Positions 2,906-3,822 of a stretch of DNA of 7,507 nucleotides are shown here, in pieces. This stretch comes from Escherichia coli (GTDB lineage Bacteria; Pseudomonadota; Gammaproteobacteria; Enterobacterales; Enterobacteriaceae), in assembly GCF_003334315.1 (NCBI RefSeq), contig NZ_QOWR01000092.1; one strand, given 5' to 3'. Position 1 is the stretch's first letter, and each line of letters opens with the position of its first letter. Under the pieces are notes generated by a model. That model was not told the DNA's origin, did no database searches, and worked only from the letters and a program-made list of their open reading frames with translations. The position numbers and the translations under genes are program-made.

Positions 2906-2913
2906 CATTCTCT
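2906..2913. repeat. Target-site duplication (right copy), CATTCTCT
   Basis: Exact 8-bp match to 461..468, directly abutting the right IS terminus. Confidence 0.85.
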
Positions 2914-3778
2914 GCCAGGCATATGTCGATGTAATCCATAAACGATTTCAGCTTACCCCTTTTGTGGCCAGTCTTTCTGGCTGGCGGTTCAGGGGATGTT
3001 TTCTGGTTATCGTGTACCACAAAGCAGGGATATTGCCCCGATAGTCACATTTCAGATTGATCGCGGTCTGAAGATGTGGCACTGAGGTAACGTGCTGGTG
3101 TCACTGGTATTGCTGAAGTTATGGTTTTTCGGGGTCAGGTGAGCCTGTTGTGTGTATGCTTTTTGTTCAGGTCAGAGGGGGACTGTGTGGACAGCGGCTT
3201 TTGTCTCCGGGCATTCACGCCTGAACGATGAATGCGATTTTCAGCAATATTTGTCTTTGTGACACTCTCTGGTTGAGAAGCTAATGCGCGCCCCTGTTTC
3301 CACAGAGAATGAGGCTTGCCATCAGCCGAAACATCAGTATTCCACGCCATACAGACGGCGCCTGACCATGTGCTGATGCAGGTAAAATGTTTCACTACAA
3401 CTGTTCGGGTTGCTATGCAACGAAACAGCGATTCTCACGATCTTTAACTGCAACGTTTTTCCGCCTGAAAGCTGACTGCCTCCTGCTGAGGTGGGAGGCT
3501 ATGATTCAGTGCGTTTATAGTCTCCGGGGTATGCATGTACCGGAGCATACCATTTCTGGTGGATAACAAGCCGGCACATTCAGACTGCAGTGAAGATGGA
3601 GGCACCTGGTTGTGAAGAACGTTTCTGCCCGTGGCTGCTTCGCATCATCAATGGTATTCATACCCGCTCAGAAATGACCGGGTGCTGAAGCCCTCCGTTA
3701 TCGCGCAGTATAATGACGTATATGATCTGTGGACGAGTGAGCGGCGTGCCTGATGTACGCCGCTATTACTGTATTTTA

Positions 3779-3812
3779 CCACAGGGCTGGTTTTCTGCTG
3801 CCAGCCCTGTGG
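3779..3812. terminator. Perfect 12-bp stem-loop (CCACAGGGCTGG / 10-nt loop / CCAGCCCTGTGG), possible transcript-end or stabilising hairpin
   Basis: Perfect inverted repeat read directly from the sequence, 11 nt beyond the stop (3823-3825) of the minus-strand 202-aa gene. No clean U-tract on either strand, so terminator function is uncertain. Confidence 0.3.
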
Positions 3813-3822
3813 TTCTCAGACA

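Follow-up and report, generated by a model that had tools for sequence, protein, structure and literature searches.

A gene-poor tract beside an AlpA-linked gene in an Escherichia coli genomic island is probably insertion-sequence debris and non-coding spacer

Organization of the locus

The window, as we call the whole stretch of DNA analysed here, comprises 7,507 nucleotides of an Escherichia coli contig (NZ_QOWR01000092.1), and its features are collected in Table 1. The tract under study (2906-3822) lies between an IS66-family element and a hypothetical gene of 202 aa, and is followed on the minus strand by a 383-aa hypothetical gene, the complete minus-strand order being AlpA, the 202-aa gene, the tract, the 383-aa gene and a YeeP-like GTPase gene. 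This arrangement resembles that of the CP4-44 / SRL-PAI-type islands of E. coli and Shigella, which carry AlpA, a YeeP-like GTPase, IsrC and Ag43. Two paralogous islands (L005 and L006) share with the window the AlpA-202aa module and its 3' flank, and contain the GTPase gene, the IS102/IsrC RNA and an Ag43/AIDA gene, whereas in the window a dynamin-family gene stands in place of Ag43. The island differs from K-12 CP4-44, which lacks the 202-aa gene and in which no counterpart of the tract was found. The Rfam IS102/IsrC RNA (RF00124) lies between the GTPase and Ag43/AIDA genes in both paralogous islands (L005 853-1089; L006 850-1086), far from the tract, and its presence confirms that these islands are of CP4-44 type.

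The 202-aa protein matched no Pfam, PHROG or NCBIfam family, and a search of the contigs of species-representative genomes returned 41 pattern matches, none of them confirmed, and no close relative. Homologues at 57-66% identity occur across Enterobacterales (Yersinia, Klebsiella, Salmonella, Cronobacter, Hafnia and Pantoea), always directly after AlpA, and a homologue with 81-82% amino-acid identity is present in three E. coli variants of the island (L019-L021). The gene is an uncharacterised but conserved part of the island backbone. Elsewhere in Enterobacterales the order is GTPase(-), hypothetical(-), AlpA(+), 198aa(+), Gp2/YfjJ(+) and Zn-ribbon(+). Compared with islands of Klebsiella, Enterobacter, Yersinia and Salmonella (L012, L015, L017, L022), the AlpA-202aa module (3823-4725) is thus inverted in E. 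coli relative to its GTPase/hypothetical and Gp2/Zn-ribbon flanks, which places the tract at an old rearrangement junction and would fit the lack of function argued for below. A search for long inverted repeats at the inversion breakpoints gave only weak and unconvincing matches of 15-25 nt (72-82% identity).

Table 1. Features of the window and the evidence on which each is placed
Feature	Position	Strand	Evidence or remark
Right end of an IS2-like (IS3-family) element	1-77	+	NCBIfam IS2 TnpB C-terminus, E = 0.0068
IS21 remnant, part 1	84-468	-	blastn, 90% and 87% identity to IS21 on plasmid locus L008
IS21 remnant, part 1a: istB C-terminus and 3' end of IS21	84-272	-	
IS21 remnant, part 1b: istA codons about 68-134	269-468	-	with frameshifts and stops
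Target-site duplication, left copy, 8 bp	461-468		CATTCTCT
IS66-family insertion sequence	469-2905	+	ORFs, RefSeq annotation of identical loci, ends, empty site
tnpA, within the IS66-family element	552-935	+	
tnpB, within the IS66-family element	932-1279	+	
tnpC, within the IS66-family element	1329-2864	+	
Target-site duplication, right copy, 8 bp	2906-2913		CATTCTCT
IS21 remnant, part 2: istA codons about 41-67	2914-2997	-	about 90% identity to istA on many plasmids
Lineage-specific segment, probably non-coding; type A islands only, fragments in type B	2998-3515		no similarity elsewhere except pieces in L006
86-aa ORF, 71 aa from the ATG at 3350; probably spurious	3135-3395	-	sometimes called 'hypothetical protein' by PGAP and others
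59-aa ORF (MFHYNCSGCY...); very probably a chance ORF	3387-3566	+	
Block common to paralogous CP4-44-like islands (types B, C)	3516-3777		about 70-80% identity; apparently unconstrained 3' flank of the 202-aa gene
10-bp GC-rich hairpin, type A only	3739-3765		on the plus strand followed by a U-rich tail, UAUUACUGUAUUUUA; absent in L005 and L006
13-14-bp perfect hairpin, type A only	3778-3813		9 nt past the stop codon of the 202-aa gene (minus strand)
202-aa hypothetical gene downstream of AlpA (PGAP: 200 aa)	3823-4428	-	anchor for comparative work

Insertion sequences in the gap

The IS66-family element has the tnpA-tnpB-tnpC genes, terminal repeats, an 8-bp target duplication and an empty site elsewhere. 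Both of its ends start with GTAAGCGT, and they are imperfect copies of the GTAAGCG... type. In its three-ORF layout, its GTAAGCG ends and the length of its duplication it is like other IS66-family insertion sequences, and nothing about it is unusual. Since the 8-bp direct repeat flanks the element, deletion of 469-2913 restores the target, and the pre-insertion sequence rebuilt in this way, as the initial annotation had proposed, is 1377 bp long. It is colinear at 97% identity with a locus of E. coli strain 11899A_LBHALD (L007), which represents the empty site; as the two are colinear without any IS in L007, the reconstruction is correct. The rebuilt 1377 bp contain no long ORF, which bears out the earlier description of the tract as ORF-poor.

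The target into which the IS66-family element inserted is an older IS21 copy on the minus strand (84-468 and 2914-2997), internally deleted and truncated at its 5' end. When mapped to the intact IS21 of plasmid locus L008, the nucleotide identity was 87-90% across 189 and 284 nt. In tblastn, IstB residues 214-265 matched at 81% amino-acid identity (E = 2e-24), and IstA residues 41-134, which come from 269-468 together with 2914-2997 (87% nucleotide identity), at 51% (E = 1e-18). An NCBIfam IstB match was also obtained in the window (E = 1.4e-8), and PGAP/RefSeq places pseudogene calls on these pieces ('AAA family ATPase' and 'IS21 family transposase'). By istA/istB homology the copy thus belongs to the IS21 family, but it has neither intact IS21 termini nor complete istA and istB genes, and its homology breaks off about 27 bp before the right terminus. 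An intact IS21 encodes the IstA transposase and the IstB helper ATPase; what is left here translates, with frameshifts, to IstA 41-134 and IstB 214-265 only. About 470 of approximately 2130 bp remain, about 1.4 kb having been lost between istA codon ~134 and istB codon ~213 in the internal deletion that joins 84-272 to 269-468, and the copy stops at 2997, with the left end and the first ~40 istA codons missing. It cannot transpose, because it is mostly deleted, its left end is gone and it has been split further by the IS66-family element; it is a dead remnant and not an active element. The initial annotation had considered that the tract might be the remains of the locus hit by the IS, and this was right for the edge of the tract, where 2914-2997 corresponds to istA codons on the minus strand.

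Other insertions were found in the same gap. Across strains it carries IS66, IS100, IS1, IS2-like and IS21 elements, at least five types, and it appears to be a recurrent landing pad in E. coli. IS100 is present in clone D i2 / Nissle-type genomes (L003 3084-4885), about 45 bp from the IS66 site, another IS66-family element in L010 (1-2335) and IS1 in the neighbouring spacer of L011 (2617-3314). In the window itself, positions 1-77 are 87% identical to the end of K-12 IS2F. This IS2-like end is missing from the site in otherwise near-identical loci (L001, L002, L004, L007), which align only from position 76, and the source strain therefore has an extra IS beside the IS21 remnant. We also noticed that two predicted proteins (P0138 and P0145) are chimeras of tract ORFs and an IS end. 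Gene callers repeatedly produce spurious or chimeric "hypothetical proteins" in this gap.

Distribution and divergence of the spacer

Many complete genomes contain unannotated DNA that matches the tract at 100% identity, and of 5426 complete E. coli genomes, 1913 carry it at an identity of at least 95%. In the plasmid database only six records carry it, five from E. coli and one labelled Klebsiella, and no match was found in phages. No nucleotide similarity to it was detected in the islands of Klebsiella, Enterobacter, Yersinia and Salmonella that carry 202-aa homologues, and a literature search on the island backbone gave nothing specific to this spacer. AGCATNCCATTTCTGGTNNATAAC, the best-conserved 24-mer of the shared block, had no exact match in 100,044 species-representative genomes.

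Within E. coli the spacer (2998-3822) falls into two parts. Homology to the paralogous Ag43-type islands L005 and L006 starts at 3516 and extends into the 202-aa gene, so that 3516-3822 is shared; to the left of this point, L006 keeps two short pieces of 2998-3515 together with the IS21 junction. The IS21 junction and part of the tract already existed before island types A and B diverged. Comparison of the island types showed a difference of 11% in the 202-aa gene and of 20-50% per ungapped block in the adjoining flank, which thus evolves much faster than the gene. Indels in the shared block measure 1, 2, 3, 4, 7, 8 and 12 nt, and the mismatches show no codon-phase bias; a 5/1/0 bias in one 30-nt block was discounted, the block being too short and having out-of-frame indels on both sides. 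In the variants L019 and L020 the 202-aa homologue is followed by an unrelated gene-free gap of 1.44 kb (L019 4110-5551; L020 4104-5543). A long empty spacer is thus common to these islands even where the sequence differs.

It may be asked whether 2998-3822 is a decayed protein-coding gene that is intact elsewhere, with the 71/86-aa minus-strand ORF as its last open piece, for example. The neighbouring genes all lie on the minus strand, the gap is unusually long and PGAP calls the 71-aa ORF, all of which would suit this explanation. However, the spacer gave no Pfam match at E <= 10 in six frames and no NCBIfam or PHROGs match, and a phmmer search with three minus frames and one plus frame of 2998-3822 against 1.84 billion representative proteins found no true homologue; its only hits were 14 short ORFs called in this very DNA, several of which are chimeric with an IS end. 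Further evidence against it is that the tract has no similarity to the neighbour genes of related islands: when all neighbour proteins of the Enterobacter, Klebsiella and Yersinia islands were compared by tblastn with the tract and with its paralogues, no match in the tract had an E-value below 0.01. On the strength of this result a remnant of the Gp2/YfjJ gene, or of a 175-aa gene of Yersinia, was also rejected. Together with the substitutions in the 71-aa frame, given below, these results make a decayed gene very unlikely.

Small open reading frames

The initial annotation had drawn attention to a 59-aa ORF at 3387-3566. The ORF indeed exists; its residues 6-9 form a CxxC, a further ATG lies in frame at 3501, and the AGGT noted upstream of its start codon is present (3380-3383), although it lies 3 nt and not 5 nt from the ATG. 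That it encodes a real small protein could be argued from the CxxC motif, from the weak AGG 3-4 nt before the ATG and from the fact that 1043 of 1889 E. coli records keep the frame open, as judged by exact matches to a 61-nt probe around the start. On the other hand, 824 of the same 1889 records (~44% of carriers) match exactly an allele with an additional A after codon 3, a +1 frameshift that cuts the product to 29 residues, and this frequency already largely refutes a protein. The length of the ORF is within chance as well: an ATG ORF of at least 59 aa appeared in 83% of dinucleotide shuffles of 2998-3822, in which the longest ATG ORF averaged 82 aa. A collection of ~15 billion predicted proteins does not contain the sequence, which has never been called as a gene and has no Pfam, PHROG or NCBIfam match. 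Furthermore, homology to the paralogous islands breaks off at 3516, inside the ORF, so that nothing in those islands corresponds to its first 43 codons; its C-terminal part is out of frame there, and neither L005 nor L006 has an in-frame ORF. In other strains it is broken by IS insertions (P0145). The ORF is thus neither kept across carriers and relatives nor set above chance by length, homologues or family, and the chance that it encodes a protein is close to nil.

The 86/71-aa ORF on the minus strand is called as a gene by PGAP in many genomes, which counts against reading the tract as junk, and its cluster has 252 members, all of them from E. coli and all unnamed. It showed no family matches, its region is deleted in L006, and its frame has 5 nonsynonymous and 3 synonymous changes. 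When any start codon was allowed, 56% of the same shuffles contained an ORF of 86 aa or more. This ORF is probably spurious.

RNA structure

A second proposal concerned 3478-3551, where an attenuator or switch built from mutually exclusive hairpins had been suggested. All three pairs of repeats were found again (GCCTCC at 3478 with GGAGGC at 3494, CTCCGG at 3522 with CCGGAG at 3540, and GGTATGC at 3528 with GCATACC at 3545). Mutual exclusion holds for the second and third, while the first is independent of both. The hairpin cluster (3470-3560) does not fold significantly better than shuffled sequences (z = -1.4 on the plus and -1.7 on the minus strand), and in sliding windows of 120 nt along the tract z ranged from -2.3 to +1.3. 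A search of Rfam 15 at E <= 1 found nothing in the window or in the tract of four uninterrupted loci (L007, L005, L006 and L019); the IsrC RNA of L005 and L006 described above was the only hit. In island types B and C the CTCCGG/CCGGAG stem is lost (CACCAGG / CCGCAG), and because this alternative stem is lost the "switch" is not conserved, although GGYATG/CATRCC stays pairable in the paralogues.

More broadly, one may consider that the tract encodes a structured regulatory RNA, either the attenuator/switch at 3478-3551 or an sRNA or 3'UTR element in 3516-3780. The block can be aligned across three island types, the GGTATGC/GCATACC stem pairs in the paralogues through U-A, then U.G, then C-G, and RNAalifold folded the shared block into 63 pairs. 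In 11 of these both partners had changed, and the result was better than the built-in controls; the structure had, however, been optimised on that same alignment, which comprises only ~3 independent lineages. When the alignment columns were shuffled, the controls folded as well or better, with z from +0.2 to +0.9 for the block as a whole and from -1.1 to +1.1 for the 120-column windows, so that neither the whole block nor any window had an energy better than chance. The covariation signal was rejected after these controls, because the alignment of three lineages had itself served to fit the structure. With power limited to ~3 lineages, we conclude that the shared block of the tract has no conserved structure, and the structure and covariation analysis across homologous loci that had been suggested to us thus found nothing beyond column-shuffled controls. 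A regulatory RNA is further disfavoured by the absence of an Rfam match, by the modest single-sequence scores and the loss of the alternative stem described above, by a scan in which no promoter-like site was found, and by the distribution of the block, which neither the L019/L020 variants nor any other species has. We regard such an RNA as extremely unlikely, and the attenuator proposal is not upheld.

Hairpins next to the 202-aa gene

The only significant structure in the tract lies at its right end, where 3730-3822 (z = -6.3 and -6.2; -49.9 and -42.7 kcal/mol) folds into two tandem perfect hairpins. The hairpin with which the tract was said to end is real, with 13 perfect base pairs (3778-3790 / 3801-3813) and 14 in the fold. 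In L005 and L006 its place is taken by an unrelated shorter sequence. No hairpins were found after the stop codon in seven related loci, and these are therefore not a conserved feature of the 202-aa gene family. Like Rho-independent terminators, the two are stable, GC-rich, perfect stem-loops just past a stop codon, with a partial U-rich tail on the plus strand after 3739-3765; unlike them, neither has a U-run on the strand that is sense for the 202-aa gene (minus), and both are absent from the paralogous islands. A consensus terminator scan did not call them canonical intrinsic terminators. They are probably the 3'-end hairpins of the 202-aa gene, and would most likely mark, terminate or stabilise the 3' end of its mRNA and block antisense read-through.

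A more ambitious interpretation would make the type A hairpins (3739-3813) and the ~260-nt block at 3516-3777 a cis-acting element of the island, serving for instance as a bidirectional transcription insulator or as an RNA derived from the 3'UTR of the AlpA-202aa operon, or would take the 71-aa ORF as a genuine E. coli-restricted protein; we give it a very low probability.

Nature of the tract

Taken together, the results suggest, with a probability that we put at roughly 0.88, that the tract 2906-3822 belongs to the ordinary junk DNA of an E. coli genomic island and consists of a broken IS21 plus a non-coding spacer that evolves rapidly. Its first part would be the 5' stump of the old IS21 copy (2914-2997), which resumes at 468-84 beyond the later IS66 insertion, and its second part ~0.8 kb of non-coding DNA (2998-3822) that appears to drift at a roughly neutral rate. 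The whole would be non-functional filler separating two modules of a CP4-44 / SRL-PAI-type island, and the gap would accept repeated IS insertions because nothing essential is there. The 59-aa ORF and the proposed RNA switch are, very probably, chance features of a sequence of ~50% GC. Thus, of the three possibilities raised in the initial annotation, the remains of an interrupted locus hold good for the edge of the tract, as a decayed IS21, while the small protein and the structured RNA or attenuator do not; the reconstructed empty site is an ordinary intergenic and pseudogene region with no conserved structure, and the 59-aa ORF is unconserved.

Wide retention of the tract, in about 1900 of 5426 genomes, and the age of its IS21 junction, which precedes the divergence of types A and B, count against reading it as junk; hitch-hiking with the island accounts for both equally well. 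The tract may be transcribed. As a composite of IS debris and neutral spacer it is ordinary and already annotatable. The biological weight of the result is small: a candidate small gene and a candidate riboswitch-like element are struck off the list, and the gap can be given a clean annotation, with an IS66 nested in an IS21 remnant, then a neutral spacer and then 3'-end hairpins.

Two further observations were made to the right of the tract. The last ~77 bases of the window (7431-7507) differ from L001, L002 and L007, which align only to 7430, and may represent another insertion or rearrangement junction just past the Zn-ribbon gene. A 67-aa ORF at 5852-6055 on the minus strand (MMVIRKKKCRDCGNAITHNTVCCPYCG...), present in O104:H4 as WP_001297900.1, has two CxxC motifs and a C-terminal hydrophobic helix, and looks like a genuine small zinc-ribbon membrane protein.
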